This document shows positions 8,401 through 63,510 of a stretch of DNA of 64,000 nucleotides, one piece after another. Numbering within the stretch: position 1 is the first letter of the stretch; each line of letters starts with the position of its first letter. The stretch spans positions 32,887 to 96,886 of the IMG/VR virus record IMGVR_UViG_3300043399_000633, one strand, 5' to 3'. The position numbers and the translations under genes are program-made. The DNA comes from a virus. The notes under the pieces were generated by a model, which saw only the letters and a program-made list of their open reading frames with translations, had not been told where the DNA came from and ran no database searches.

Positions 8401-9417
8401 ATGAAATGTATCTGGATTGAAAATAGAATAAGTATCGAAACTGATGGGTACACAAGACCATGTTGTTTAGAAACCGATAATCTTGCACGTATCGACAAGA
8501 TAGATAATGGAATTCTGCATAGCTTCAACCACTCAAAATTATTATCGCTAAGAGAAAATTTAAAAGATGGTTATGGACCACTAACTAAACGTTATTGCCA
8601 TAGATGTGAAGATTTAGAAACAAAAGGACAACCTAGTCTAAGAACAATAAGCGGCAATGCAGAAGGTCCGAGAAAACTCAAATATATACAGTTTAAGTTA
8701 AGCAATCAATGTCAGTTGGCTTGTGTTCATTGTGCCAGTGGCCGTAGCAGCACATGGGCAAAACTTAATGGTGAATCGCCCCATGTTAAGAAGGCATTTC
8801 AAATTACCGATGCCTTCATTGATGAACTGAAAATGCTGTTACCTGATATCGAAACATTGAAATTTTCGGGTGGCGAACCTTTTCTTCAACCTGAACATTG
8901 GAAACTCTTAGAAGTATTAAAATCAGAGAATCGTAGTCATTGCAAGTTAGAGTACATAACTAACGGGATTAGTCCAATACGACCTGATCTTTGGGAAGGA
9001 TGGAAATCAATAGATTGTTCTATAAGTGCAGATGGATTTGAGGATACGTATGAATGGTTTAGACGAGGTAGTAGTTGGTCAGAGTTACTAAGTAATATTA
9101 AAATCATTGAGCAATACAGTAATGTGTCTATAAATTTTGCAGTCACACCCTACACTGTTAGCGACTATTTACAGTCTAAAGAATTTTGGTCTGATAAGTA
9201 TCACTTTAGTGAATTCCCTGTCGTCTATCCGGCATATTGCAGTATGCTCAAATTCCCAACAGAATATATACAACAGTTAGATAGGTATACTGAAATTCCA
9301 TTCACTAGTGGATGCAGTCCAACAGGTGATATAAATATTTTTCGAAATTGGGCTAACAAAATTGATACAATGTGGAATACTGTTGGAAAAGCAAAACAAT
9401 TATTTTGGTGGATGTAG
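8401..9417 (+). CDS. Radical SAM protein with N-terminal Twitch/SPASM-like domain
   Basis: CQLACVHC, SGGEP, N-terminal C...PCC. Confidence 0.85.
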   Translation: MKCIWIENRISIETDGYTRPCCLETDNLARIDKIDNGILHSFNHSKLLSLRENLKDGYGPLTKRYCHRCEDLETKGQPSLRTISGNAEGPRKLKYIQFKLSNQCQLACVHCASGRSSTWAKLNGESPHVKKAFQITDAFIDELKMLLPDIETLKFSGGEPFLQPEHWKLLEVLKSENRSHCKLEYITNGISPIRPDLWEGWKSIDCSISADGFEDTYEWFRRGSSWSELLSNIKIIEQYSNVSINFAVTPYTVSDYLQSKEFWSDKYHFSEFPVVYPAYCSMLKFPTEYIQQLDRYTEIPFTSGCSPTGDINIFRNWANKIDTMWNTVGKAKQLFWWM

Positions 9418-9424
9418 TAAAAAC

Positions 9425-10627
9425 ATGAATGAAACCTTTTGCATATTGCCCTGGTTACATCTCTATGTACACACCGATGGTAATGTTTTTCCTTGCTGTA
9501 CTAGTTGGGCAGGAAAAGATTCAGCAGTATTGGGTAGTATAAAATCAGAATCATTAGAACACATATTCAATACAGATAAAATAAAGCAGTTAAGGTTAGA
9601 TATGTTATCTAACAAACACCGCAATGATGTATGCTTTAAGTGCTATACTCAAGAAAAACATGGTTATAATAGTCCTAGAATCGCACATAATCAACGTTTT
9701 CAGCATCTAACGAAAAATTTAATTAGTAGTACAGCAACTAATGGAGAAGTTTCTCCTAACATAAAATCTATTGATATTAGACTTACCAATACATGCAACT
9801 TAAAATGCAGAAAGTGTAATCCACAATTGAGTTCAGCTATCGAGGCTGAGCAAAAAAATAAAACCATATTAATACAAGATGAAACATCTATCGAGATTTT
9901 AGAAGAACAATATCCTAACATAGAACACATATACTTTGCCGGCGGGGAACCTAGTCTAATGAAATATCAGTATGATATTTTAGTAAAATTAATAGATTTG
10001 GGCAGAGCCCACGAAGTATCTCTTGATTATAATATCAATGGAACAAACTTAAAATACAAATCTCTTGACCTATTGTCACTTTGGTCTAAATTTAAAAGAG
10101 TTAATGTACTAGTAAGTATTGATGGGATAGACGAACATGCAGAATACATTAGACATGGGTTCAAGTGGCAATTGATATTAAAAAATATTCATAAGTTAAT
10201 GGAATATCAAAAAACATCTAACAATTTTCATTTGGGATATTTTTGTACAGTTGATATACTAAATGTACACCATATCATTGATCTAACAGAGTACTTCAAA
10301 AATACTGGATTAATTACAGATGACATCAATATGTCATACCATATTTTGATGTTGCCTAGATATTACAACATAGATATATTACCGGCAAAAATTAAACTAG
10401 ATTTGGTTACCAAAATAAATACCTATGTTGATACTAACAAAACAACTAACAATTTAAGTTTTTTTGAAACACTAAAATTGCAGCTCATGAAAAATCATGA
10501 CAAAGATTTTAGTAATGAACTTAAAGAGTTCAAAAAAGTCACTATGAATTTAGACAGGATAAGAGGTGAGAATTTTTGCAATACGTTCCCGTATTATAAA
10601 GAGATGTGGGATAATATTACCATTTAA
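9425..10627 (+). CDS. Radical SAM protein with N-terminal Twitch/SPASM-like domain
   Basis: FCILPW, PCC, CNLKCRKC, AGGEP, SIDG. Confidence 0.9.
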   Translation: MNETFCILPWLHLYVHTDGNVFPCCTSWAGKDSAVLGSIKSESLEHIFNTDKIKQLRLDMLSNKHRNDVCFKCYTQEKHGYNSPRIAHNQRFQHLTKNLISSTATNGEVSPNIKSIDIRLTNTCNLKCRKCNPQLSSAIEAEQKNKTILIQDETSIEILEEQYPNIEHIYFAGGEPSLMKYQYDILVKLIDLGRAHEVSLDYNINGTNLKYKSLDLLSLWSKFKRVNVLVSIDGIDEHAEYIRHGFKWQLILKNIHKLMEYQKTSNNFHLGYFCTVDILNVHHIIDLTEYFKNTGLITDDINMSYHILMLPRYYNIDILPAKIKLDLVTKINTYVDTNKTTNNLSFFETLKLQLMKNHDKDFSNELKEFKKVTMNLDRIRGENFCNTFPYYKEMWDNITI

Positions 10628-20041: not shown

Positions 20042-21670
20042 TTAAATACTACTATATAGTTCCGTATTGACAAATTCTAAATTTTTTTTAGTCCACTCAT
20101 ATACCGAAATTAATCTATTTGATTCTAACATACCTATACTACTAAACTTTTGATAGTATAAGTAACTACAATCGATTAAGTTTTGTACTTTATGTTTATT
20201 TTTAAATAGATTTCTTTCAGTGTTGTATGTGACCTGGTATGAATTTCTACTGTTGTAGATGTAAAATAATATCATTCCTTCATACCATTCACGTTCATTC
20301 ATTGAATATGTGCTCACTACAGCTTTGGGTATTACCCAATTTTTTTGAATTTGATTATTAAATGCTTCTCCATGTCCTACGATTTCTATTTTTTTAATTA
20401 CTAATTTAAATTTGTCAATATAAGACTGATTTGCGGCAGGGGTATTAGGTAAAATTTCAAATGGCAAATGGTGAGCAAACATGTCCAACGTACCTGCTTC
20501 TGCCATATTATTCTCTAAATTTTTCAATGTTTGTCCTGGTAACCCCCAAATAAAAGTAAGTCTATTGGTATATTTTATGTGTGAAATATTCCCATACTTG
20601 TTTTTAATATTAATAATTAACTGTTTGTGGTCTGGCCACGGTACCTCTGGTCTGTTGATATTTTCGAGTACAGTTTTATCTAAATCTTGAAGATCAAATT
20701 TATATCCTTTAGTGACTTCGGCTTCTATCATCTTATCAAGTAAATAGAATACTTTTTGCTTATTCAATTTACTCCACTGGGGATTGAAAATCTCAGGACC
20801 TTTATTGTTATTATTTATTTTTTTCTCGCACCAATACTCTATGATGTGTTCGTCTTGAGGCGTTAATCCAACGTTTGGATTAGTCCAATACACAAAAGAT
20901 AAATTCCATTCAAAAAAAAGGTCTATTTCTTTTCTCCATAATGGTTCTAATTCATCCTTACCCCATATTCTTACTTTGTTGTGTAACCCGGAACTCCAAT
21001 CACAAAAACTACATGCATATGGGCATCCTTTTGTCGTTTCCCAAACTATTAGTAATTTGTGATCAATATTATCTACGGGAAAATAGGTTTTAAAATACTC
21101 TTTAATATCTTCCAAAAAAGAGAAAATTTCATTCTTATATTCAATATAAGGACTCTTACTAAGTGTTTTTTTATTAACGAACACCTCATGAGGGTAAACT
21201 GTTGTACTATCAGCCGCATTTATAAGTTTTACATCATGCCCGGCTAAAAAATCTAGTATTTTAGTAAATGCATCTTCACCGTCACCGTATACGGCAAAAT
21301 CTATGTAATAGTTATCTACAAAAAAACTTGAATTTTTATGAGCATCTATCTCGGGTCCTCCCACAATGATTATTAAATTCTCAAATAGTGACTTTAACTG
21401 TTTTGCTAGACTAAAGAAAAATTCACGATTCCATACATAAACACTAAATGCTAAAATGTCAATTTTTTCTTTGATAATCAGATCAGTTAGTATTTTTAAA
21501 TTGTCTTCAATATGATTCAGTAAAAACAATGGAGAAGTCCAAATATATTGATTTTTAGATAACCCCGTTGTTTGATGATTTATTTTCAAAAACCAATGTA
21601 TTGGTGACACATAATACTGAAGCGTCGCCGGACATGAGCTTGTAATTGTTTTTATTTTTTTCATGATCAA
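20042..21670 (-). CDS. Cobalamin-binding radical SAM protein
   Basis: FSVYVWN, GGPE, GDGE, KGCPYACSFC, GLPG. Confidence 0.9.
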   Translation of the reverse strand: MIMKKIKTITSSCPATLQYYVSPIHWFLKINHQTTGLSKNQYIWTSPLFLLNHIEDNLKILTDLIIKEKIDILAFSVYVWNREFFFSLAKQLKSLFENLIIIVGGPEIDAHKNSSFFVDNYYIDFAVYGDGEDAFTKILDFLAGHDVKLINAADSTTVYPHEVFVNKKTLSKSPYIEYKNEIFSFLEDIKEYFKTYFPVDNIDHKLLIVWETTKGCPYACSFCDWSSGLHNKVRIWGKDELEPLWRKEIDLFFEWNLSFVYWTNPNVGLTPQDEHIIEYWCEKKINNNNKGPEIFNPQWSKLNKQKVFYLLDKMIEAEVTKGYKFDLQDLDKTVLENINRPEVPWPDHKQLIINIKNKYGNISHIKYTNRLTFIWGLPGQTLKNLENNMAEAGTLDMFAHHLPFEILPNTPAANQSYIDKFKLVIKKIEIVGHGEAFNNQIQKNWVIPKAVVSTYSMNEREWYEGMILFYIYNSRNSYQVTYNTERNLFKNKHKVQNLIDCSYLYYQKFSSIGMLESNRLISVYEWTKKNLEFVNTELYSSI

Positions 21671-26231: not shown

Positions 26232-26326
26232 GGAAAGTAATGCAGGCATATTGGTGTGCCGACTAGTTTCGAAAGCTAGGTTCCCATGTGACATGGGATG
26301 GGGTTCGATTCCTCTGCTTTCCGCCA
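26232..26326 (+). tRNA. tRNA-Ser(CGA), 8/4-type fold
   Basis: 8-bp acceptor, 4-bp T stem, 6-bp D stem, long variable arm, GCCA. Confidence 0.75.
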
Positions 26327-26404: not shown

Positions 26405-26481
26405 TGGGGTGACATACGACGGGAAGTATACTGGGCTTTGAACTCAGGTCTTAGTCGGTTCGAATCCGACCACCCTTGCCA
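26405..26481 (+). tRNA. tRNA-Gln(TTG), atypical D arm
   Basis: Cloverleaf, CCA. Confidence 0.8.
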
Positions 26482-28539: not shown

Positions 28540-28623
28540 GGAGGTTTGGCAGAGCGGTCGATTGCGCCTGACTGTAAATCAGGTCTTAACAGCACGGTGG
28601 TTCGAATCCATCAGCCTCCACCA
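28540..28623 (+). tRNA. tRNA-Tyr(GTA)
   Basis: Cloverleaf, CCA. Confidence 0.9.
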
Positions 28624-31720: not shown

Positions 31721-31809
31721 GGGTGTTGCTCCCTGTTGCCGGCTGTAACCCGGTAGGCGTTGTTAAGCAGGGCGGTTGCCAAATGGTTCGACTCCTTCAA
31801 CACCCACCA
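31721..31809 (+). tRNA. tRNA-Tyr(GTA)-like, rewired/pseudoknotted D domain
   Basis: 8-bp acceptor, CTGTAAC loop, T loop, ACCA; no D hairpin. Confidence 0.65.
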
Positions 31810-31819
31810 AAAATTTAAT

Positions 31820-31939
31820 GGGGCCTTAGTGTAATGGTAGCATGTTTAAAGACGGTTATCCTGATAGGATACGGACAGCAAACTTTCTCAATTCCACGAT
31901 AAGGAAAAGGTCCAGGTTCGAATCCTGGGGGCTCCACCA
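31820..31939 (+). ncRNA. CCA-ended tRNA body with permuted ACAGCAA stem replacing the anticodon arm
   Basis: GGGGCCT/GGGCTCC acceptor, D and T arms, TATCCT-GAT-AGGATA-CGGACAGCAA. Confidence 0.65.
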
Positions 31940-31947
31940 AAGTTATT

Positions 31948-32023
31948 GCCCTCTTGGAGCAGCGGAGTGCTCGTCGCCCTGTCACGGCGAAGGCCACGGG
32001 TTCGAATCCCGTAGGGGGCGCCA
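31948..32023 (+). tRNA. tRNA-Asp(GTC)
   Basis: Cloverleaf, CCA. Confidence 0.9.
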
Positions 32024-32027
32024 AATT

Positions 32028-32084
32028 TAGGATGCTAACAGCAAATTTTACTCAACTTTCAATTGGTGAAAAAAATGCATCCTG
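32028..32084 (+). ncRNA. ACAGCAA-stem RNA with anticodon-loop cargo (TTC)
   Basis: TAGGATGC/GCATCCTG, CAA-CTTTCAA-TTG. Confidence 0.65.
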
Positions 32085-32095
32085 TCATTTTTAAT

Positions 32096-32169
32096 GGTGT
32101 CTTTAGTGTAGTGGAAGCAAAACTGACTGTGAATCAGTAGGCGAGGGTTCGATTCCCCAAGACACCCCA
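32096..32169 (+). tRNA. tRNA-His(GTG)
   Basis: G-1:C73, CCA. Confidence 0.85.
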
Positions 32170-32177
32170 AACAATTT

Positions 32178-32217
32178 GCCCCAGTAACTCAGTGGACTAG
32201 AGTACTGTGCTACGAAC
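32178..32217 (+). pseudogene. tRNA-Arg(ACG) 5' half truncated after the anticodon loop
   Basis: Acceptor 5' strand, D arm, CTACGAA; followed by HNH gene. Confidence 0.7.
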
Positions 32218-32252
32218 GTTGGAACTTTTGTTCGCAAATGATAAATAAGTAT

Positions 32253-32966
32253 ATGAATTACATAAAACATTATAATATACTTATTAATCGGGCAAAAATC
32301 AGATCATTGACAGAAGATTACGAAACGCACCATATTGTGCCCAAATGTTTGGGTGGAACTGATGATTTTGATAATCTTGTTAGATTGACTCCTGAGGAGC
32401 ATTATACTGCTCATCTATTGTTGGTAAAAATCTATAATAGCCCACCATTAGTATACGCCGCACAAATGATGGCGGTGAGTAGTAAACATCACCGAAGGAA
32501 TAACAAAATGTATGGCTGGCTAAAACGCCGGTACATTGAAATATGCCGCCAACGGATAGGAAATAAAAACGGTAGCTTTGGTAGACATTGGTATACCAAT
32601 CCTTCAACATTAGAAAGCGGTAAATTTGAGGATAGTAAAGTACCTGCAGGGTGGATAAAGGGCCGCAGAATTAAAAAAGAATTAAAACCTAGAAAAACTA
32701 CTACATGCGGATCATGTGGTAAGAATACAAATTCTCACAAGGCCAAATTGTGTAGTGATTGTAAACCGCTTAGTTCGGTGAGACAAGAAAAACAAAAAAT
32801 GTTTTTTTCAGATGAAGAAAAAATAAATGCTTTAAAACTTTTTGACGGAAAAATACGCCCTGCTCTGTTTCATTTAGGATTAAATGACAGTGGGGTACAT
32901 TACAGATGCATGAAAAAATTAAAAGCGTCTTTATACCCTCTGGCTACGAACCAGTTGAAAGGTTAA
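32253..32966 (+). CDS. HNH homing endonuclease
   Basis: ETHHIVPKCLGG.D...NLVRLTPEEHY.AH; paralog of 29435 gene. Confidence 0.9.
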   Translation: MNYIKHYNILINRAKIRSLTEDYETHHIVPKCLGGTDDFDNLVRLTPEEHYTAHLLLVKIYNSPPLVYAAQMMAVSSKHHRRNNKMYGWLKRRYIEICRQRIGNKNGSFGRHWYTNPSTLESGKFEDSKVPAGWIKGRRIKKELKPRKTTTCGSCGKNTNSHKAKLCSDCKPLSSVRQEKQKMFFSDEEKINALKLFDGKIRPALFHLGLNDSGVHYRCMKKLKASLYPLATNQLKG

Positions 32967-33004
32967 CTGGATACATAGAGGTTCGAATCCTCTAAGACGC
33001 GCCA
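32925..33004 (+). tRNA. tRNA-Arg(ACG)-like with D-loop element 3' of the anticodon arm
   Basis: GCGTCTT/AAGACGC-GCCA, CTGG-CTACGAA-CCAG, perfect T arm. Confidence 0.6.
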
Positions 33005-33155
33005 AATTTAAGGATAGACGGTAGATTAGAGTCCCGAGCAATCTAACATATCAGGGGATATGTGAAGAACAACGTGATTGTAAGGTCGTTAAACTCATCT
33101 ATACGAGACAATCCATCGAGGTCGGGTAACGCCGAATAGGTGGGCGCCAAATATT

Positions 33156-33230
33156 GCTGATATAACACAGAGGTAGTGTACTTTCTTGGTAAGAAAGAGG
33201 TCACTGGTTCGAATCCAGTTATCAGCACCA
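33156..33230 (+). tRNA. tRNA-Thr(GGT)
   Basis: Cloverleaf, CCA. Confidence 0.9.
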
Positions 33231-33234
33231 GTTA

Positions 33235-33346
33235 GGGGATACTTACAGCAACATCTATCAAACGATAGGTAGTTGGTTCGATTCCAACTTTTTCCACATG
33301 GGAAAATAGCTCATTAGGTAGAGCATTCGTCAAGAAATGTATCCCG
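33235..33346 (+). ncRNA. YrlA-like RNA (circularly permuted tRNA domain on ACAGCAA stem)
   Basis: GGGATAC/GTATCCC stem; order T arm, closed acceptor hairpin, D arm. Confidence 0.75.
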
Positions 33347-33459
33347 TTTTATTAGCAAGAATTCTTGCAAGAAGAAACCACTGCGACCTTAGCCTGGGCG
33401 GGCGGTATGTCAGTTACGAAACAGTTGGGTAAGAGTCCTTATGCCTAGGCACAAATTTT

Positions 33460-33587
33460 GGAGATGTGATGTAATGGTAGCATAGCACAGCAAAAACCGT
33501 ATTCTGTTTTAGCATACGTGCAGCAACATCTTAGCTATCCCTCTGTGAAAGGGCTTGACCGTGGTTCGATTCCCGGCGTCTCCACCA
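33460..33587 (+). ncRNA. CCA-ended tRNA body with permuted (G)CAGCAA stem and His-like anticodon hairpin
   Basis: GGAGATG/CGTCTCC-ACCA; CGTATTCT..AGCATACG-TGCAGCAA; CCCT-CTGTGAA-AGGG. Confidence 0.65.
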
Positions 33588-33593
33588 AACATA

Positions 33594-33669
33594 GTCCAGT
33601 TAGTTCAGCGGTATGAACGCTACCCTGACACGGTAGAGGTCACTGGTTCGATCCCAGTACTGGACACCA
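33594..33669 (+). tRNA. tRNA-Val(GAC)
   Basis: Cloverleaf, CCA. Confidence 0.9.
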
Positions 33670-33719
33670 GTAGTTGACGATAATTCCGCAGTGTAGTATA
33701 CTGCATATATCGTTTTTTA

Positions 33720-33813
33720 AAGGAGATTGACATGAAACGAGGTAAACTGTAGTGTCATCTTGAGACTCCGTATGGTCCAGGATGGCACGTTAAAGAAAAC
33801 AAAAATACGACCA
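33720..33813 (+). other. SD plus 6-codon mini-ORF (MKRGKL) plus hairpin/pseudoknot
   Basis: AAGGAG, ATG 33732, TAG 33750, 11-bp stem starting at the stop codon. Confidence 0.5.
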
Positions 33814-33814
33814 T

Positions 33815-33889
33815 CCCAGAGAAACTTTGAAGGTGAAGTCCGGCCTCTTAAGCCGAGAGAACTGAGTTCGATTCTCAGCCCTGGGACCA
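33815..33889 (+). tRNA. tRNA-Lys(CTT), atypical
   Basis: CTCTTAA loop, CCA. Confidence 0.7.
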
Positions 33890-33892
33890 TTA

Positions 33893-33968
33893 CGGAGTAT
33901 AGTGAAACGGTTATCACAGCAGACTTTTAATCTGCCAATTTTGGGTTCGAATCCCAGTGCTCCGACCA
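33893..33968 (+). tRNA. tRNA-Lys(TTT)
   Basis: Cloverleaf, CCA. Confidence 0.9.
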
Positions 33969-33976
33969 AAATATAT

Positions 33977-34052
33977 GCGGGTATAGCTCAGTCGGTAGAG
34001 CAGTAGACTTTTAATCTATTGGTCGTGGGTTCGAATCCCCCTGCCCGTACCA
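33977..34052 (+). tRNA. tRNA-Lys(TTT)
   Basis: Cloverleaf, CCA. Confidence 0.9.
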
Positions 34053-34154
34053 TATAAAAGCACATTAGTTACGTTGGGCCGAAAGCTGGAAAGGACAAGT
34101 AACCGCCAGGTTAAAACGGGAGACCCAAAGTGTGATAGTGTGCTTCTATATGGT
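34049..34154 (+). repeat. Long-stem hairpin family member overlapping both flanking tRNA ends
   Basis: ACCATATAAAAGCACATTA/TAGTGTGCTTCTATATGGT. Confidence 0.75.
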
Positions 34155-34226
34155 GATGTAGCATTAAGGTAATGTACCACCCTCATAAGGTGTCCTAAGG
34201 CGGTTCGATTCCGCCCATCACTACCA
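34152..34226 (+). tRNA. tRNA-Met/Ile2(CAT)
   Basis: Cloverleaf, CCA. Confidence 0.85.
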
Positions 34227-34241
34227 AATAAGGAGAATATC

Positions 34242-34424
34242 ATGAAAACTGTATACTTTGAGAATTATAGAAATCATGAAAAATTTGAATGTCACGACTT
34301 GAAAGATATTCGTGTCATCGACGGTATTGAATACCTCAGAGTTTTTAGATTTGGTACGCAACGAGATTGTCTTGTGCGCAAAGACCAACTTAGGAAACTC
34401 AGTAAGAATGAAAAGCCGATGTAG
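34242..34424 (+). CDS. Small hypothetical protein
   Basis: AAGGAG RBS; stop inside tRNA-Phe. Confidence 0.7.
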   Translation: MKTVYFENYRNHEKFECHDLKDIRVIDGIEYLRVFRFGTQRDCLVRKDQLRKLSKNEKPM

Positions 34425-34490
34425 CTCAGTTGGTAGAGCAGCGGACTGAAAATCCGTGTGTCACTGGTTCGAACCCGGTCTTCGGCACCA
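34415..34490 (+). tRNA. tRNA-Phe(GAA)
   Basis: Cloverleaf, CCA. Confidence 0.9.
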
Positions 34491-34497
34491 TATTAAT

Positions 34498-34583
34498 GCC
34501 CCGGTGCAGGGAATTGGCAGACCGGCAGTGTTGAGAACGCTGTGACGCAGGACGTGTGGGTTCGAATCCCACTCGGGGCACCA
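34498..34583 (+). tRNA. tRNA-Leu(GAG)
   Basis: Long variable arm, CCA. Confidence 0.85.
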
Positions 34584-34588
34584 GTTTA

Positions 34589-34690
34589 GGGATGACTACA
34601 GCAACACAAATTTCTGCAGCCATATTTTGCAGGCCAGCCCAGTAGGGGTGTGTCGTGGGTTCGACTCTCGGCTTTAGACACATCATCCAG
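34589..34690 (+). ncRNA. ACAGCAA-stem RNA with three-hairpin cargo including a T-arm-like hairpin
   Basis: GGATGA/TCATCC, CTACAGCAA, GGGTTCGACTC. Confidence 0.6.
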
Positions 34691-34698
34691 TTTTACAT

Positions 34699-34773
34699 AT
34701 CTCTGTAGTTCAATGGACAGAATGATTCTCTCCTAAAGAATAGATATCGGTTCGATTCCGGTCAGAGGTACCA
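34699..34773 (+). tRNA. tRNA-Arg(CCT)
   Basis: Cloverleaf, CCA. Confidence 0.9.
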
Positions 34774-35019
34774 AAAATCAACATCCGACCTAACGCAGGC
34801 AACTGAGGAAGTTCGGGACTTGTGGCAAGTGCGTGTGGGAGGGATGTTCATAGCATGCCGTTAATACCACCGTGATATAACAAGCAACACAAACAGAACT
34901 AGGTAACACTTGCACTATTAGTTCGGGTTGTGGCGAAGATGAATGTTAGGATAAAACAGAATCCCGGCTATGGGATGTTGATTTGACAGAAAAGAATAAA
35001 TGATTTATAATAAGAATAT

Positions 35020-35094
35020 GGGACATTAACTCAGCGGAAGAGTCTTGGTCTTCGAAACCAATGGTCGGGGGTTCGAATCCTCTATGTCCCTCCA
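35020..35094 (+). tRNA. tRNA-Arg(TCG)
   Basis: Cloverleaf, CCA. Confidence 0.85.
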
Positions 35095-35146
35095 ATGATA
35101 CATTAAATAATGTAACAGGCATTTAGCACAAGGAAAGGAGTTAAAA

Positions 35147-35707
35147 ATGGCTGTTCTAGCACTAGATATTTCAGGCACTCCGCGGCAATGGATTTCGTAT
35201 GATGACGCAATTTCATACCATGCTACAAAGAGTGTAGCGTGGAGCATGGGTGATATTGTTGCAAAATACCGCGGCGGTATCCAAAATGACGGTACAGAAA
35301 GCTATATCGAAACTCCAAGTATTATTGCAATTAAGGGACATGGGTTCAATCCTCACAAGCATTCGAGGGTTGCTCTAAGTAACCGTACACTGTTCGGTCG
35401 TGACCGATATGTGTGTGCGTACTGCGGTGGACATTTCCCGAACTTCAATAATCTTAGTCGTGATCACATTGTTCCTAAGTTTCATGGCGGAGAAAACACG
35501 TGGATGAACGTAGTTACCGCTTGCAAGGAATGTAATAGCAAGAAGGGTCACAAGACATTGAAGGAAGCTCGTATGGAATTGTTGTACGTGCCGTACGAAC
35601 CCAATCACTATGAAAACATGATTCTGCAAAATCGCACGATCCTTGCAGATCAAATGGAATACTTGCTTGCAGGTGTTCCAAAACATAGTAGGATCCTATT
35701 GTCATAG
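35147..35707 (+). CDS. HNH endonuclease (McrA-like)
   Basis: RD...CAYCG...DHIVP...GG...W.N.VTAC..CN..K; AAGGAG RBS. Confidence 0.9.
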   Translation: MAVLALDISGTPRQWISYDDAISYHATKSVAWSMGDIVAKYRGGIQNDGTESYIETPSIIAIKGHGFNPHKHSRVALSNRTLFGRDRYVCAYCGGHFPNFNNLSRDHIVPKFHGGENTWMNVVTACKECNSKKGHKTLKEARMELLYVPYEPNHYENMILQNRTILADQMEYLLAGVPKHSRILLS

Positions 35708-35773
35708 GAAGAGGTCATGCAAGGTGTTGACAAAATATCTTGCATGACTTACAATGAGTAAATATTGAATAAC

Positions 35774-35848
35774 GCCGAATTAGCACAGGGGTAGTGCAAT
35801 CGCCTTGTAAGCGATAGGTCGTCTGTTCGAATCAGACATTCGGCACCA
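35774..35848 (+). tRNA. tRNA-Thr(TGT)
   Basis: Cloverleaf, CCA. Confidence 0.9.
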
Positions 35849-35854
35849 AATTTT

Positions 35855-35931
35855 CGGAGTATAGCGCAGTCTGGTAGCGCAACTGCTTTGGGAGCAGTGG
35901 GTCGGGAGTTCGAATCTCTCTACTCCGACCA
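35855..35931 (+). tRNA. tRNA-Pro(TGG)
   Basis: Cloverleaf, CCA. Confidence 0.9.
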
Positions 35932-35940
35932 AGTTTTTAT

Positions 35941-36015
35941 TCCGGTGTAGCACAGCGGTAGTGCAGTTGACTGTTAATCAATTGGTCGTTGGTTCGAACC
36001 CAGCCACCGGAGCCA
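35941..36015 (+). tRNA. tRNA-Asn(GTT)
   Basis: Cloverleaf, CCA. Confidence 0.9.
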
Positions 36016-36023
36016 AGTTTTAT

Positions 36024-36100
36024 ACGGCTGTAGTTCAGTGGACCAGAACAATTGCCTTCTAAGCAATGGGTCGCAGGTTCGAATCCTGCCAGCCGTGCCA
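36024..36100 (+). tRNA. tRNA-Arg(TCT)
   Basis: Cloverleaf, CCA. Confidence 0.9.
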
Positions 36101-36117
36101 ATAATAAAAGAGTCTTT

Positions 36118-36483
36118 ATGAAAGAGTTTACGATACCCGAAGAGTATATAACTGAAGTTGTTGTTAGGACTGAACATGATTTCATAAAGGATCGAAAAAA
36201 TCCTACTTACGAAGACCTAATAAAAATCCTTAGAGGATATGATATAGGTGTTAGCATAAGTAATGAAGATCACGATGAATTTGCAAAATTGCGTGACCAA
36301 CTTGAAAGTGAAGGTTACATAGAATGTCAGCGTGGTTGGTGGAATGGTGATCGTGTATTAAAGCCATTTAAATTGAATGAGTGGAAGTTTAAAAAGAATC
36401 ATAAATTTCCTTGCGCCGCAGCTATGAAAGCTAGTATAGAGTGTGCTAGGAAATATGGTTGGAAAAGTATTTCGCATCTTTGA
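36118..36483 (+). CDS. Hypothetical phage protein
   Basis: ORF between tRNAs; start moved downstream of tRNA-Arg. Confidence 0.7.
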   Translation: MKEFTIPEEYITEVVVRTEHDFIKDRKNPTYEDLIKILRGYDIGVSISNEDHDEFAKLRDQLESEGYIECQRGWWNGDRVLKPFKLNEWKFKKNHKFPCAAAMKASIECARKYGWKSISHL

Positions 36484-36484
36484 T

Positions 36485-36559
36485 ATCTCCCTGGTGTCAA
36501 CGGCAGCATGACGGTCTCCAAAACCGTGGGTGGGGGTTCGAATCCCTCGGGGGATGCCA
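36485..36559 (+). tRNA. tRNA-Trp(CCA)
   Basis: Cloverleaf, CCA. Confidence 0.9.
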
Positions 36560-36773
36560 AAAAAATATTGACAAATAATCGTAGGTGTTATATACTGTGT
36601 ATCTTGATTGAGAAGTTGATGCAAGTAAGCCCTAAGCGAAAGCAGGCATTGAATAAAGTTCTTGACAAGAAATAGCAGGTGTTGTATACTTGCACAGTAG
36701 CCTGAGAACTTACAGGCACAACGTTTCCCGATAACGTAAATCGGAAGCTCTTTAAAAATCATAAAAGCATTTT

Positions 36774-36863
36774 GCCCGGGTGGTGAAATTGGTAGACACA
36801 AGGGACTTAAAATCCCTCGCTTCCGAAAGGGGCGTGCCGGTTCGATTCCGGCTCCGGGCACCA
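36774..36863 (+). tRNA. tRNA-Leu(TAA)
   Basis: Long variable arm, CCA. Confidence 0.9.
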
Positions 36864-37067
36864 TACTATAATGCATCTTTGTCTATATTTTATATATTGA
36901 GGGGACATAGCCTGCCCTAGCGAAGCTAAAGAACCCGAGGATACACATCATATCGTATTAGAAAATTAGACATTCTAATACATTATTTAATATTGATGAT
37001 TGTAACTTTGACTCGGCAACACGGTACATCGAACTAGACACTCGGTGGAGGTGCATTATAGTATGGT
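36860..37067 (+). repeat. Long-stem hairpin family member
   Basis: 20-bp stem starting in tRNA-Leu ACCA; about 168-nt interior. Confidence 0.7.
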
Positions 37068-37076
37068 GAATTAAAT

Positions 37077-37153
37077 GCCTCTGTAGCTCAATTGGTCAGA
37101 GCAGTGGACTCATAATCCATTGGTTACAGGTTCGAGTCCTGTCGGAGGCACCA
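37077..37153 (+). tRNA. tRNA-Met/Ile2(CAT)
   Basis: Cloverleaf, CCA. Confidence 0.9.
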
Positions 37154-37250
37154 AACATAGAAGGGGAGAGTGAGCGGAAACGGCAAGTCTACGACCGCCT
37201 ACTCTTAAACGACAGAACAGGACCGCGTCCCGTAGATTTTAGATATTAAT

Positions 37251-37342
37251 GGAAGGTTGCCCGAGAGGCCTAAGGGAGCGGTTTGCTAAACCGTCGATTC
37301 ACGAAAGTGGGTCCGTGGGTTCGAATCCCACACCTTCCACCA
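37251..37342 (+). tRNA. tRNA-Ser(GCT)
   Basis: Long variable arm, CCA. Confidence 0.9.
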
Positions 37343-37352
37343 AGCATACTAT

Positions 37353-37430
37353 GCACCGGTACCAGAGAGGCTTAATGGCTCGGATTGCAAACCCGTTGAT
37401 TCGTAGGTTCAAATCCTACCCGGTGCTCCA
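37353..37430 (+). tRNA. tRNA-Cys(GCA)
   Basis: U73, CCA. Confidence 0.85.
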
Positions 37431-37435
37431 GATAA

Positions 37436-37527
37436 GGTGAGTTGGCAGAGTTGGTTTATTGCAACAGTCTTGAAAACTGTCGATTCTGAATAAGGGTCCG
37501 TGAGTTCGAATCTCACACTCACCACCA
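37436..37527 (+). tRNA. tRNA-Ser(TGA)
   Basis: Long variable arm, CCA. Confidence 0.9.
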
Positions 37528-37534
37528 ATTAATT

Positions 37535-37624
37535 GGGGGTTGTTCTCTACGGCGGACTGTAAATCCGTTGCCTTGAATATGTAGAGTGGTTGGCGATTAG
37601 GTTCGATTCCTTCAGCCCCCACCA
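37535..37624 (+). tRNA. tRNA-Tyr(GTA)-like, rewired/pseudoknotted D domain
   Basis: Same topology as 31721 with covarying helices. Confidence 0.65.
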
Positions 37625-40310: not shown

Positions 40311-41201
40311 CAAGGGCAGCTTAATGTCCTACACGGTATGGTTCGCCCAGCTGTGTGAAGAATAAGTCAGGTGACTGACCCAAAGGAGGTAAGCCTACAT
40401 AACTCCGCTAGTAATAGTTCATTTAAGCAAGCCTGCTCACACCCGCGAGGGTGCGTTCACTGAGAAGACCGGTGGATGTAACAATGAAGCAAGTGTGTTG
40501 GAAAGAATGTCTGTTTAAGTCCCCGCAAGGGTAAGACAGGCAGACAGAGAGTAACAGGTGGTGCTGACCTCAACACAAAACCAACTTGCGAATTGGTATG
40601 AGAAAGGGTAGTATTATGATCCGAAGGGTCGCACCTAAGGGTTGTAGTGCAGTATGAGTGGTTAGTGGGCATGTAGTAATACATGTACACCGATCGCAAA
40701 ATACGACTGAGTAGTCCGCGAGACAAAAGGTACGTGGTGTGTTGTATTGAGTAGAGCAAAACTTTATTCAGCAACTGAGGCAGCACATCATAGTAGGTCA
40801 AATGTAGATCAATGGTAGATCGTCTGTATGATGAACAGAATGCTGTCGGTTCAAGTCCGATCATTTTAACAAAAACGCAAAGACTGCCTCGGTTGTATGT
40901 GAAAAACATCTAATACTTGACTCTTCGGAGAATCAAGTCTGACGTAACTCGCAAGGTGAAATCAGTTTATGCAGGATATTTCGTAGCCCGCAAGGCTTAA
41001 TGGACCGCAAGTTCAACGGAATGGAAAGCGTAGAATAGCATACAATGTCAAGTCTACTGCCTGACTCTAAACGGCGATGTTGGTAACAGACTAGGTTACT
41101 GTGTAATAACAGGGCTTAGTGGATATCTAGAGAAGGTTGGCTCGCAAGGCTAACTATAATGCTAGAGGTGTTACTCGGTAAGGATGTAATCTCAGTCCTC
41201 C
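40311..41201 (+). ncRNA. GOLLD-like giant ncRNA with embedded tRNA-like domain (40797..40870)
   Basis: About 890 nt without a plus-strand ORF, many GNRA hairpins (CGCAAG/CGCGAG), embedded cloverleaf, phage tRNA-cluster context; recognised by eye. Confidence 0.7.
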
Positions 41202-41846: not shown

Positions 41847-41922
41847 TGCGGCGTGGAGAAATGGTATCTCATCAGTCTCATAAGCTGAAGGTAGTTGGTT
41901 CGATTCCAACCGTTCGCAACCA
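41847..41922 (+). tRNA. tRNA-Met(CAT), initiator-like body
   Basis: TGCGGCGTGGAG start, AACCA end; bulged acceptor. Confidence 0.8.
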
Positions 41923-43272: not shown

Positions 43273-44688
43273 ATGAACGCATTTGTTAACGCAGTAGCAA
43301 ACCAAGAAGCACGTACCGCTAACGGTATGAAGGCTCGTAAGTCTAGTGCTAACGCACTGGTCGATCTGTTCTACAACATCGGTGCAAGCCGTGGTAAGAA
43401 CATTGTTCCGGCATTCACTGCTGCCTATGTCCAAGATAAGGACTTGGCATTGCGTATCGCATTGTGGGCGCGTGATGCCCGTAGTGGTGCAGGTGAACGT
43501 CAACTGTTCCGTGATATCTTGACTCATCTTGAAAAGACTGATCCCGATGCGGCAGTTCGTTTGATGAACAAGATTCCTGAACTTGGTCGTTTTGATGACC
43601 TGTTGGTCTTCAAGTCTAAGGACATGAAGGCTAAGGCTTACACGCTGCTTGGTGACAACCTTCGTGCTAAGAATGGACTTGCGGCAAAGTGGACTCCTCG
43701 TAAGGGTGAAGTCGCACGTGAAATCCGTGAATTCTTTGGCATGACTCCAAAGCAATACCGTAAGACTTTGGTTGGAATGACCAGTGTCGTTGAATCGCGA
43801 ATGTGTGCCAACGACTGGGATAACATCAACTTCAGCCACGTTCCTTCACAGGCTGCACGTATTTACAAGAAGGCGTTCAACCGTCATTCTGTAAAGTTTG
43901 CAGAATACGTACAGAAGTTGGTCAGCGGCGATAAGACCGTTAAGGTCAATGCCGGTGCAGTTTTCCCGCACGAAGTTTTGAAGGACATCGTTACCCCTTA
44001 TGGTCGTACGACCTTGGGTAAGACTGAGTTGGATCACTTGACCGCTCAGTGGGATGCGCTTCCTAACTACATGAACGATGCGAACATTCTGCCTATGGTA
44101 GACGTTTCGGGTTCTATGACCTGCCCTGCAGGCAAGGACACTAGCGTTACCTGCTTGAATGTTGCAGTATCGTTGGGTCTGTATCTTGCTGATAAGAACA
44201 AGGGTGCCTTCAAGGATACTTTCTTGACTTTCAGCGGCTCACCTGAACTGTTGACCCTAAAGGGCAACATTGTTCAAAAGGTTGATCAAATGATCAAGTC
44301 TAAGTGGGCAATGGATACTAACCTGCACAAGGCTTTCGACAAGATCCTAAGCGTGGCTGTTGCGAACAATGTTCCTGACACTGACATGCCTAAGATGGTG
44401 TTGATCCTTTCGGACATGCAGTTCAACCAATGTGTTGATCACGATGATTCTGCTATGCAGATGATCGAACGCAAGTACCGTAACGCAGGTTACACTGTGC
44501 CTAGCGTGGTCTTCTGGAACCTAAACTCAAGTGGTAACGTTCCAGTCAAGAGTGACAAGTCTGGTGCGGCTCTAGTCTCTGGCTTCAGCCCAAGCATCAT
44601 GGCAAGCATTCTTGGTGCAGACCCTCAGGAGTTCACTCCTGAAGGCATGATGTTGAAGACCATCATGGCAGATCGCTACAACTGCTAA
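43273..44688 (+). CDS. Ro60/TROVE-like RNA-binding protein (DUF2828-type) with C-terminal vWA domain
   Basis: RD.R.G.GER..F, AKW.PR, Y+K.L, DVSGSM MIDAS, FLTFS..P, ILSDMQF, FWNL, SGFSP. Confidence 0.8.
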   Translation: MNAFVNAVANQEARTANGMKARKSSANALVDLFYNIGASRGKNIVPAFTAAYVQDKDLALRIALWARDARSGAGERQLFRDILTHLEKTDPDAAVRLMNKIPELGRFDDLLVFKSKDMKAKAYTLLGDNLRAKNGLAAKWTPRKGEVAREIREFFGMTPKQYRKTLVGMTSVVESRMCANDWDNINFSHVPSQAARIYKKAFNRHSVKFAEYVQKLVSGDKTVKVNAGAVFPHEVLKDIVTPYGRTTLGKTELDHLTAQWDALPNYMNDANILPMVDVSGSMTCPAGKDTSVTCLNVAVSLGLYLADKNKGAFKDTFLTFSGSPELLTLKGNIVQKVDQMIKSKWAMDTNLHKAFDKILSVAVANNVPDTDMPKMVLILSDMQFNQCVDHDDSAMQMIERKYRNAGYTVPSVVFWNLNSSGNVPVKSDKSGAALVSGFSPSIMASILGADPQEFTPEGMMLKTIMADRYNC

Positions 44689-57726: not shown

Positions 57727-59067
57727 ATGGGTGCTAGTTGGATTCGTAAACTAAATGAAAGTGATAGTCGCCTGCATAAGGAAGATGTTGTTCGCCAAGC
57801 CCTCGCGGCTAGTGTTCTAGGTAGCACTAGTGCTCAAATCTTTTTGGGTTTGACAAAAGCTTGTTACAATCCTTACGTTACCTTCAATGTTCGCCAAGTG
57901 CCCGATACTGTCGGCGTAACGGATGCAGAAAACCCATGGCAAGATTTCAATGAATTGTTGACTAAGCTCAGCAAACGCCAACTCACGGGTAACGCCGCAC
58001 GTGATGCTATCGAAGAAATGGCATATCGGTTTACTAGTGAAGAATGGAATACATTCTGTGCCCCTGTGATTAGGCGTGACCTTCGTGCAGGTATCAGTGA
58101 CAAGACCATTAATAAAATCTGTAAGAAAACTGAATACGAGATTCCAATCTTTGGTTGTCAACTTGCAACTAACAGCGAAGGTCGCCCTGAAATGAAGGGC
58201 ATCAAACGACTTGAGCCTAAGCTGGATGGTGTGCGTGTGTTGATGGTAGCGGTTTGGAGTGATGTCACCGAGGTTACTGTCACAAGTTATAGTCGCAACG
58301 GTAAGGTGTTTGAAAACTTTACTCACATCGAAGACCAGATCCGTACTGACTTTCTGAAACTAATTCGCAAAACCAAGATTGCCCAGCAACTTAGCTATGG
58401 CGTTGTGTTTGACGGCGAAGTGATTGGTAATAGTTTTCAGGAGCTGATGCGTCAAGCCCGACGCAAAGAAAATGTCCAAGCAGAGGACAGTGTGTTTAAT
58501 ATTTTTGACATTCTTCCGTTGCACGATTTCCGTCGAGGTCATTGGAATAGTCAACTTAGCAAACGTATTGAAGCACTTGAAGCAATGCGCCCTGTAATTG
58601 ATCACATGCCTAATGTTGAACTATTGCCCCACATTATGGTGGACCTTGACACCGCAGCCGGGCGTGACCAACTAGATCGATATGCTAAGGACCAAGTTAA
58701 CGCTGGATTCGAAGGCATCATGATCAAGGATGTGAACGCTCCTTACGAATGCAAACGCAATACGTTTTGGATGAAGTGGAAGCCCACGATTACTGTTGAC
58801 TTGACTGTGGTTGGTCTTGAAGAAGGCACAGGTCGTAATCAAGGTCGCCTCGGTGCTCTTGTGTGTGAGGGTACCGACGATGGTAAATTCATTCAAGTAA
58901 ATGTTGGTAGTGGTTATAGTGACGAGGATCGTGATAGCTATTGGGCTAATAGCAATCTGATTGTTGGTCGCACTGCTGAAGTACTGTGTGATGTTATCAC
59001 ACAAAATCAAGACGGTAGCTATAGCCTTCGTTTCCCTCGCTTTGTAAGGTTCCGTGATGACAAATAA
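57727..59067 (+). CDS. ATP-dependent DNA ligase
   Basis: KLDG.R, DGE, FD, EGIMIK, K.K, VGSG, LRFPRF.R.R.DK. Confidence 0.95.
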   Translation: MGASWIRKLNESDSRLHKEDVVRQALAASVLGSTSAQIFLGLTKACYNPYVTFNVRQVPDTVGVTDAENPWQDFNELLTKLSKRQLTGNAARDAIEEMAYRFTSEEWNTFCAPVIRRDLRAGISDKTINKICKKTEYEIPIFGCQLATNSEGRPEMKGIKRLEPKLDGVRVLMVAVWSDVTEVTVTSYSRNGKVFENFTHIEDQIRTDFLKLIRKTKIAQQLSYGVVFDGEVIGNSFQELMRQARRKENVQAEDSVFNIFDILPLHDFRRGHWNSQLSKRIEALEAMRPVIDHMPNVELLPHIMVDLDTAAGRDQLDRYAKDQVNAGFEGIMIKDVNAPYECKRNTFWMKWKPTITVDLTVVGLEEGTGRNQGRLGALVCEGTDDGKFIQVNVGSGYSDEDRDSYWANSNLIVGRTAEVLCDVITQNQDGSYSLRFPRFVRFRDDK

Positions 59068-62307: not shown

Positions 62308-63510
62308 ATGACACAGGAAAATAAAATTAATCATTGTTCTTTTTGTGGATCACATAAAGATTCAGTTAAAAAATTGATCGTATCAGAAACAGTCGCTATA
62401 TGTAGTGATTGTATTGACTTATGCAATCAACTGGTTTCCGATGATTCTACTATAGATCAAATAGAAAAATCTACAACAACAGAATACGATCCGATAGAAA
62501 TAAAAAACTATTTAGACAAATATGTAATCGGACAAGATAATGCAAAAATGGTTTTAAGCGTTGCAATTACTAATCATTATAAACGAATAGACAATCCACC
62601 TAAAGACTTAGAACTTGCTAAAAGTAATATTTTATTCATTGGCCCCACGGGTAGCGGTAAAACATTGTTGGCTAAAACAGTAGCGAAGTATTTAAACGTT
62701 CCTTTTGTTGTTGCTGATGCTACTTCATTAACTGAAGCAGGTTATGTAGGTGATGATGTTGAATCAATGATTAGTATGTTGGTTAATGCTGCCGGGGGTG
62801 ACGTAAAGCTTGCCGAACGAGGAATAGTTTTCATTGATGAAATTGATAAAATTGCACGTAAGGGTGAAAGTACCAGCATCACACGTGATGTCTCAGGCGA
62901 GGGAGTTCAGCAAGCATTACTTAAATTAGTTGAAGGTACTGTATGTCGTATTCCTGCTAGCGGAGGTAGAAAACATCCCGGCGGAGATATGCATGAAGTA
63001 AATACCAAAAACATACTTTTTATTAGTGGCGGCGCATTCGTAGGTTTAACAGAAATTATTAAGGCTCGTGTAAAGGGCACTACGATAGGATTCAGTGCTG
63101 AGGTAGAATCTAAAAATAATAACGTCGACCTTAGCCATGTGTCCCCGGACGACCTGACTAAATTCGGTATGATTCCAGAATTTATTGGACGTTTCACAAC
63201 TGCAGTAACACTGAAAGATTTGGATAAAAATGAACTTCTTAGAGTGTTAACCGAGGTGAAGAGCAATTATATAGAACAGTATCAATATCTATTTTCAGTA
63301 GACAACATAGAATTACATTTCGATAAAAAATCATTAGAACAAATTGTCGATAATTGCCTATCACTAAAGACTGGTGCTAGAGGACTGCATACTGAAATAG
63401 AAAAAGTGTTAATGCCTCATATGTACAATTTAAAAAACTATGAGAAAACTGGTATAAAAAAGATAAATATAACTCAAGAATTAGTTTTGAATCCTAGACC
63501 CATTATATGA
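62308..63510 (+). CDS. clpX: ATP-dependent Clp protease ATP-binding subunit
   Basis: CSFCG zinc finger, GPTGSGKT, TEAGYVG, RDVSGEGVQQALLK, RKH, IGF loop. Confidence 0.97.
   Translation: MTQENKINHCSFCGSHKDSVKKLIVSETVAICSDCIDLCNQLVSDDSTIDQIEKSTTTEYDPIEIKNYLDKYVIGQDNAKMVLSVAITNHYKRIDNPPKDLELAKSNILFIGPTGSGKTLLAKTVAKYLNVPFVVADATSLTEAGYVGDDVESMISMLVNAAGGDVKLAERGIVFIDEIDKIARKGESTSITRDVSGEGVQQALLKLVEGTVCRIPASGGRKHPGGDMHEVNTKNILFISGGAFVGLTEIIKARVKGTTIGFSAEVESKNNNVDLSHVSPDDLTKFGMIPEFIGRFTTAVTLKDLDKNELLRVLTEVKSNYIEQYQYLFSVDNIELHFDKKSLEQIVDNCLSLKTGARGLHTEIEKVLMPHMYNLKNYEKTGIKKINITQELVLNPRPII

Follow-up and report, generated by a model that had tools for sequence, protein, structure and literature searches.

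Two copies of a probable pseudoknotted tRNA-Tyr in a phage tRNA array

The DNA analyzed here (the window) is a stretch of 64,000 nucleotides spanning positions 32,887 to 96,886 of the IMG/VR virus record IMGVR_UViG_3300043399_000633, and it contains two copies of a predicted tyrosine tRNA, tRNA-Tyr(GUA), in which the D hairpin is absent and the core is built by a pseudoknot. Copy 1 (89 nt) lies at 31721..31809 and copy 2 (90 nt) at 37535..37624, both on the + strand. The record is 96.9 kb long at an estimated completeness of 27%, which identifies its source as a jumbo phage, and a sequencing-run search found the window sequence mainly in freshwater and lake metagenomes. A tRNA array of 41 ARAGORN calls occupies 25.2-42.5 kb of the window, on the + strand throughout, and includes a canonical class II tRNA-Tyr(GTA) of the same phage (28540..28623, +; 57.8 bits with the Rfam tRNA model). 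A search of the whole phage record returned exactly two copies of the pseudoknotted tRNA-Tyr. They are identical at 64/91 positions (70%) and represent one each of two subfamilies distinguished by their anticodon loops, CUGUAAC in copy 1 and CUGUAAA in copy 2. Copy 2 starts 7 nt past a tRNA-Ser (end 37527) and ends 6 nt before a tRNA-Asp (start 37631), the ordinary spacing of tRNAs in the array.

In copy 1, the 5' strand of an 8-bp acceptor (31721..31728) pairs with 31798-31805 and is followed by the 5' strand of a helix here termed helix A (CCCTGT, 31731..31736), whose partner GCAGGG is found at 31767-31772; the helix comprises 6 bp including one U.G. Directly adjoining it is the anticodon arm (31737..31755), with a 6-bp stem that includes the 26:44 pair U31737-A31755, a loop at 31743-31749 and the anticodon GTA at 31745-31747. 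The 5' strand of a second helix, helix B (GGC, 31756..31758; partner GCC at 31778-31780), was located by parse and alignment, and an A/U-rich linker (31759..31766) connects it to the 3' strand of helix A. The CGG that follows (31773..31775) is a candidate equivalent of G18-G19. The T arm (31783..31797) has a four-position stem, ATGG/CCTT with one U.U, and the loop TTCGACT, and the RNA ends in discriminator A73 and an encoded CCA (31806..31809).

The same parts recur in copy 2: the acceptor (37535..37542, partner 37613-37620), helix A (CTCTAC, 37545..37550, partner GTAGAG at 37581-37586) and the anticodon arm (37551..37569; 26:44 pair G37551.U37569, loop 37557-37563, anticodon GTA at 37559-37561) were placed from the alignments, helix B (GCC, 37570..37572, partner GGC at 37592-37594) from parse and alignment, and the TGG 3' of helix A (37587..37589) from the fixed-rule parse described below. 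The T arm (37598..37612; stem TAGG/CCTT, loop TTCGATT) agrees with the T-stem covariation of the family, and A73 with CCA occupies 37621..37624. In both copies just 9 nt separate the acceptor from the anticodon stem, and six of these pair with the variable region. An earlier note on this DNA had described two such stretches with an 8-bp acceptor, a GTA anticodon arm, a T loop, ACCA and no D hairpin, a helix A around the anticodon arm followed by a GG motif, a helix B crossing helix A with its strands exchanged between the copies, and a normal tRNA-Tyr near 28540; every one of these features was recovered.

Standard tools overlook both copies. ARAGORN calls neither, and the Rfam tRNA model (RF00005, gathering threshold 29 bits) gives no match at either copy even at E values up to 10. 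The Rfam tRNA-Sec model (RF01852) scores 23.6 and 28.2 bits at the two copies against a gathering score of 47, its alignments skipping the D region; assignment as tRNA-Sec was rejected on these scores and on the anticodon, which is GUA and not UCA. Judged as canonical tRNAs, the copies lack the D stem-loop and the combination of a 7-bp acceptor with a 5-bp T stem, their layout being 8/4, while the 7-nt anticodon loop with U33 and a purine at 37, the TΨC-type T loop, the discriminator and CCA are all present. When each copy is folded singly, acceptor, helix A and anticodon stem all form, though with unremarkable z-scores of -1.0 and -1.15, and homologs were therefore needed to decide. Rfam has no family for this fold. 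As tRNA finders miss the element, the tRNA sets of phages and arrays would be mistakenly recorded as having no Tyr gene, and in some cases no Arg-UCU gene.

Fold, covariation and distribution of the family

Homologs were sought with the pattern CTGTAA-N(30-45)-GGTTCGANTCCTTCA in virus contigs and in one genome per prokaryotic species. The virus contigs yielded 91 pattern loci, about 85 of them with the whole architecture, and the prokaryotic genomes 62 loci with about 45 members, nearly all from Planctomycetota. The planctomycete carriers belong to Pirellulales, Planctomycetaceae, Isosphaeraceae and Fuerstiella and include the complete chromosome of Lacipirellula limnantheis I41; an anticodon-free pattern added phage members with different T stems. 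Virus contigs contribute 101 and bacterial genomes 43 of the 146 distinct sequences in total, the remaining two being those of this window; lengths range over 84-100 nt, and the anticodon loops CUGUAAA and CUGUAAC mark two subfamilies. A covariance model (R1) based on 64 distinct sequences assigns 60-104 bits to members, including 80.3 bits to copy 1 and 98 bits to copy 2, and no more than 42 bits to any ordinary tRNA of these loci. A blastn comparison of copy 2 with GenBank phages returned no match. CCA is encoded in 86/140 Tyr members; the phage copies encode it, and it is absent from 41/43 distinct bacterial-genome members.

Read 5' to 3', the common fold consists of an 8-bp acceptor, two linking U residues, the 5' strand of helix A (6 nt) and, directly after it, a 6-bp anticodon stem with the anticodon GUA. 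On the 3' side, helix B (3 bp) follows directly on the anticodon stem, and then come an A/U-rich linker of 5-12 nt (mostly 7-8), the second strand of helix A and the motif UGG. The molecule is completed by the 3' strand of helix B, a spacer of 2-3 nt, a 4-bp T stem with a normal T loop, and A73. Helix B occupies the position of the class II variable-arm stem, and its 'loop' extends from the A/U-rich linker through the 3' strand of helix A to UGG. Helix A encloses the anticodon arm and one strand of helix B, the 5' one, and leaves the 3' one outside, which makes the arrangement an H-type pseudoknot. In this way the variable-arm 'loop' provides the missing strand of a D-stem-like helix. Set against the cloverleaf, the strand entering the anticodon stem corresponds to D-stem positions 22-25 and the strand before GG to positions 10-13 plus the D loop; in effect, the middle of the molecule has been re-threaded.

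The pairing was evaluated in two alignments. In the first (A1; MAFFT, 64 distinct sequences), acceptor, helix A and anticodon stem were each 98-99.6% paired, helix A showed two-sided changes at 5/6 pairs, and the covariation score was 0.538 against 0.157 for shuffled alignments (0/500 shuffles). Helix B was just 72% paired in A1, because a 1-nt difference in linker length shifts the register in one class. The covariance-model alignment likewise mis-registered the class with the shorter linker at helix B, and it was replaced by a fixed-rule parse and a class-wise MAFFT alignment. In the parse, helix A was fully paired in 65/66 sequences with 27 distinct strand combinations, and the helix B core was fully paired in 60/66 at a single register, whereas permutation gave 38 on average and 46 at most, and neighboring registers gave 0-22. 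The pair types seen in helix B include GCC/GGC, GUC/GAC, GGC/GCC, GAC/GUC, GCU/AGC and GCA/UGC. The motif 3' of helix A was UGG in 62 of the 66 sequences, CGG (as in copy 1) in three and AGG in one. Positions 26 and 44 pair in 106/110 sequences (G.U 72, U-A 9, A-U 9, C-G 8, G-C 8; shuffle maximum 88), and the anticodon stem is therefore 6 bp long and abuts helix A without an unpaired base in the 5' strand. A fourth, outer pair of helix B, between N44 and the base past the 3' strand, was dropped, as 26:44 covaries better.

The class-wise alignment (A4) contains 76 distinct phage and bacterial sequences, locus L015 being excluded for its long insertions. The proportion of paired cells was 99.8% for the acceptor (five covarying pairs), 98.9% for helix A (compensatory changes at 5/6 pairs), 98.0% for the anticodon stem (all six pairs covary), 93.2% for helix B (middle pair CG 34, UA 23, GC 7, AU 3) and 94.7% for the T stem. 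Over the whole structure it was 97.8%, against 77.9% after shuffling (0/500 shuffles). Two-sided changes occur at 20 pairs, and the covariation score is 0.581; shuffled alignments score 0.179 and slid registers no higher than 0.132. When all members are considered, the four positions of the T stem covary, pair 2 being AU in 96, UA in 27, GC in three and CG in one, and the layout is therefore 8/4. The covariation of helices A and B that the earlier note saw between the copies thus extends to homologs, which keep both helices, and its proposal of an alternative tRNA topology finds strong support in covariation across the 146 distinct sequences.

Six phage sequences (L157:6499-6583, L169:5650-5733, L171:7939-8024, L187:3379-3463, L199:6973-7057 and L208:6391-6478, the last on the - strand) have the same scaffold with the anticodon UCU, a discriminator of G, U or A, and an encoded CCA. 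A canonical tRNA-Arg(UCU) was found in the fetched region of none of these loci, and two of the six have a canonical tRNA-Tyr. Use of the scaffold for Arg UCU means that it is not bound to one identity; two anticodon-free scans gave GUA and UCU as the only anticodons among the matches listed.

Role in translation and reasons for the design

Both stretches are very probably genes for a working tRNA-Tyr with a non-cloverleaf core, as judged from the sequences. The identity set of bacterial tRNA-Tyr consists of A73, G1-C72, G34/U35 and a long variable arm (reviewed in PMC9976931). In the family, A73 is present in 140/140 Tyr members, GUA in all Tyr members, G1-C72 is invariant (A1 and A4, 140 rows), and helix B stands at the position of the variable arm. 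Features of the type required in translation are also retained, namely the 7-nt loop with U33 and A37, the 12-bp acceptor/T branch and the canonical T loop. The composition of the arrays points the same way. Among 31 fetched loci with at least 15 amino-acid specificities, a canonical Tyr gene is missing in 24 and any other amino acid in no more than six; eight fetched phage loci have 19 canonical specificities, Tyr alone missing, and carry the pseudoknotted element. In eight syntenic arrays of Planctomycetota, the element lies between tRNA-Leu(CAA) and tRNA-Glu(CUC), and the fetched array regions contain no canonical Tyr. Being the sole gene with a Tyr anticodon in most arrays, the element is best explained as a working tRNA-Tyr rather than a decoy.

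The bacterial carriers are accessory long tRNA arrays, mainly of Planctomycetota. Such arrays are known in this and other phyla, in accounts that make no mention of a pseudoknotted tRNA (PMC8421152, PMC4758250). The eight planctomycete arrays (L134, equivalent to G001:C1:5955540-5960638, and L094, L097, L098, L117, L119, L130 and L132) comprise 27-34 divergent tRNA genes without encoded CCA in the order Phe-Glu-Pro-Ile-Lys-Lys-...-Asp-Leu-[Tyr*]-Glu-Leu-Met-..., where Tyr* is the pseudoknotted element, and the array genes score lower with the tRNA model than the dispersed housekeeping tRNA genes. In Lacipirellula the tRNA model gives 74 hits, of which the array accounts for about 30. A housekeeping role of the fold in Planctomycetota was considered and rejected, given the canonical tRNA-Tyr in a Lacipirellula operon and the presence of the fold in only 6/151 sampled Planctomycetota genomes.

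As a working tRNA, the pseudoknotted RNA would be cut out of the polycistronic array as its neighbors are, and could be charged by the host tyrosyl-tRNA synthetase (TyrRS) through A73, G1-C72 and G34-U35 and so read UAY codons. No TyrRS gene (PF00579) was found in the 97 kb of this phage, a record that is 27% complete. In three dimensions, helix A would be stacked on the anticodon stem and UGG may act as G18-G19 against the T loop; a stack of 6 + 6 + 1 + 2 layers (anticodon stem, helix A, U and GG) would approximate the canonical distance from anticodon to elbow, with the A/U-rich linker presumably lying in the groove of helix A.

Several observations weigh against this interpretation or limit it. 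This phage also carries the canonical tRNA-Tyr at 28540, and Lacipirellula has one in a Thr-Tyr-Gly-Thr-tuf-Trp operon, so that in neither case is the fold strictly required and another role is possible. Contigs from two RNA-labelled runs hold 7% of the window's words, leaving copy 1 uncovered and reaching the bin of copy 2 solely via the conserved neighboring tRNA. As to the fold, G8-C65 occurs in all sequences and pairs 7:66 and 8:65 are invariant, so that conservation alone speaks for the eighth acceptor pair, and the first T-stem pair is frequently U.U or G.U. The three-dimensional model is a product of reasoning and not of computation, and since T loop and certain motifs were held constant in the patterns used for searching, the diversity of the family is under-sampled.

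PtuAB, a nuclease of Septu and Retron-Eco7, cleaves the tRNA-Tyr of E. coli within its variable loop, and a phage tRNA-Tyr evades it by means of a different variable loop (PMC13096335, PMC12673091). A tRNA-Tyr in which the D and variable regions are merged into one pseudoknot is an evident candidate for evading nucleases of this type. It is this precedent that makes evasion of tRNA-targeting defenses, as suggested in the earlier note, plausible, and our leading guess, though less probable than not, is that the design was selected for resistance to nucleases for which the D or variable region of tRNA-Tyr is the site of recognition or cleavage. A wider proposal, possible and somewhat doubtful, is that the scaffold is a general alternative to the cloverleaf on bacterial ribosomes, with at least two identities (Tyr GUA and Arg UCU), and is kept in backup arrays since its rebuilt D/variable region escapes defense nucleases such as PtuAB/Septu.

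One rival explanation accepts a functional tRNA-Tyr and denies the fold any adaptive meaning: a deletion of the D arm might have been rescued by pairing of the long variable loop and then have spread via mobile tRNA arrays. We regard this as less likely than not. The confinement of the fold to accessory arrays, its sporadic occurrence among the sampled Planctomycetota genomes and the presence of a canonical tRNA-Tyr elsewhere in the one genome checked are all in keeping with such an origin, as is the retention of TT-CCC, with which the D region of canonical bacterial tRNA-Tyr, such as that of E. coli, begins. Against it stand the strong purifying selection that preserves the fold, with numerous compensatory changes, in carriers that are very divergent, the maintenance in a single phage of two subfamilies that have diverged to 70% identity, and recruitment of the fold for a second identity, Arg UCU. 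Together these suggest that the design itself is useful.

The earlier note had also raised the possibility of a TyrRS decoy. In its general form, this explanation makes the element a tRNA-Tyr mimic acting outside translation, as a decoy or sponge for TyrRS or for a PtuAB/Septu-like nuclease directed at tRNA-Tyr, and we consider it unlikely. Overexpressed tRNA-Tyr does neutralize PtuA-PtuB toxicity in E. coli (PMC12673091), the normal tRNA-Tyr in the window renders the odd copies unnecessary for decoding UAY here, and the same array contains other tRNA mimics, the Y-RNA-like elements. However, in most phage arrays and in the eight of Planctomycetota the element is the only Tyr gene, in most cases next to a full set for the other 19 amino acids, and conservation extends to the anticodon loop, A73, the 12-bp branch and CCA, as expected of a molecule used in translation. 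Bait for a nuclease reading the variable and D region would be expected to retain that region rather than rebuild it, and the scaffold also carries an Arg anticodon. That the copies are degenerate pseudogenes or chance look-alikes with coincidental helices A and B, for which rejection by standard finders and the folding z-scores could be cited, is refuted by 146 distinct homologs with compensatory changes in every helix at levels reached by none of 500 shuffles, and by the clean score gap to ordinary tRNAs, leaving it practically no chance.

Surrounding features and comparison with known systems

Several other features of the window were recorded alongside the two copies. Immediately 3' of copy 1, at 31819-31939, lies a Y-RNA-like RNA with tRNA-like acceptor, D and T domains and a large insert; it was recorded together with 33268-33324 and 43273-44688, and this group includes a weak YrlA match of 29.9 bits and a protein with DUF2828 and DUF7788 domains (E 3e-49). 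A tRNA-like element at 32925-33004, overlapping the end of the open reading frame 32238-32966, has a 7-bp acceptor, a 5-bp T arm, discriminator G and CCA, lacks a D arm and has an 8-bp hairpin in place of the normal anticodon arm; its 62-nt core is 92-94% identical to unannotated stretches of Streptomyces and Microbacterium phages. At 26232-26322 is a tRNA-Sec-like fold with an 8-bp acceptor, a 6-bp D stem with a 4-nt loop and a long variable arm (folding z-score -3.7; Rfam tRNA-Sec 32.6 bits, sub-threshold; no ARAGORN call). Its anticodon is apparently CGA (Ser), and it resembles the 8/4 tRNA-Ser or allo-tRNA type (Mukai et al., 2017). Further Rfam tRNA matches without an ARAGORN call lie at 41848-41918 (52 bits), 26405-26478 (34.5 bits) and 33460-33584 (30.8 bits), the last covering 125 nt and possibly containing an insertion. 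The tRNA-His at 32096 was considered as an 8/4 species and rejected, the sequence being that of a normal G-1 tRNA-His.

A full-length GOLLD RNA (Rfam RF02032, 226 bits) occupies 40734-41198, with a tRNA-Ile(GAU) call at 40798-40870 within it. Permuted tmRNAs are called by ARAGORN near the tRNA arrays of related phage contigs (L013:307-783, L051:7022-7494, L078:7114-7545 and L030:7387-7805). Proteins encoded in the window include a cluster of radical SAM proteins 5' of the tRNA array (8401-10627 and 20042-21670, - strand), one with a SPASM and one with a B12-binding domain, an ATP-dependent DNA ligase (57727-59067) and a ClpX-like ATPase (62308-63510).

If the pseudoknotted tRNA-Tyr is charged and decodes, it would be a natural exception, in phages and in bacterial chromosomes, and would mean that a different chain topology is also able to produce the L-shape. 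It would also be a concrete candidate for the arms race over tRNA-Tyr cleavage, and orthogonal tRNA engineering would gain a scaffold that already exists and is distinct in structure. A direct test is possible in Lacipirellula limnantheis I41, a sequenced isolate whose complete chromosome (NZ_CP036339) carries one copy, in the array at 5957110-5957199.

Full-text searches of the literature found no description of the fold; they returned instead 8/4 tRNAs, allo-tRNAs, mitochondrial armless tRNAs and viral tRNA-like structures. One close counterpart is the canonical class II tRNA-Tyr(GUA) of bacteria and phages (RF00005). Like it, the family has a 7-nt loop containing U33, the anticodon GUA and A37, keeps A73 and the pair G1-C72, places a helix where the variable arm stands, has CCA and a T loop of TΨC type, and is located in tRNA arrays. 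It differs in lacking the D hairpin, in its 8/4 rather than 7/5 layout, in a 6-bp anticodon stem and in the pseudoknot formed as the variable-arm 'loop' pairs with the 5' strand. tRNA-Sec, the (8/4) and (9/3) allo-tRNAs and the phage 8/4 tRNA-Ser and tRNA-His resemble it in the 12-bp 8/4 branch, a 6-bp helix in the D position, a 6-bp anticodon stem, a long variable region and an occurrence in phage tRNA clusters (Mukai et al., 2017, PMC5389517, which reports no Tyr species), and tRNA-Sec is the best Rfam hit. These RNAs, however, are nested cloverleaves that keep a D hairpin of 6-bp stem and tetraloop, whereas the 3' strand of the 6-bp helix in the family lies 30 nt downstream, in the variable region, giving the opposite strand connectivity.

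The D-armless mitochondrial tRNAs, such as mitochondrial tRNA-Ser(AGY) and those of nematodes, likewise have no D hairpin between acceptor and anticodon stems, but are shrunken and flexible, with no compensating helix and often degenerate T loops (reviewed in PMC7609411). The present family is full-sized, with a canonical T loop, a GG motif and a helix rebuilt by the pseudoknot. Its assignment to the mitochondrial type was rejected on these grounds, the carriers being phages and Planctomycetota chromosomes, with the T loop and UGG conserved and the size not reduced. The tRNA-Tyr of phages T5 and SP15, which escapes Retron-Eco7 and Septu PtuAB, is also phage-encoded with a variable region unlike that of the host (PMC11555353, PMC12673091, PMC13096335); it is a normal cloverleaf with a longer variable loop and provides a known precedent for selection on this region of tRNA-Tyr. 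Finally, the tRNA-like structures of plant RNA viruses (turnip yellow mosaic virus, TYMV, and others) achieve tRNA mimicry by a pseudoknot, and some are aminoacylated (PMC9976931). There, the pseudoknot stands at the 3' end of an mRNA genome and makes up its acceptor stem, whereas the family described here combines an ordinary acceptor helix with a pseudoknot in the core of a free-standing gene within a tRNA array.

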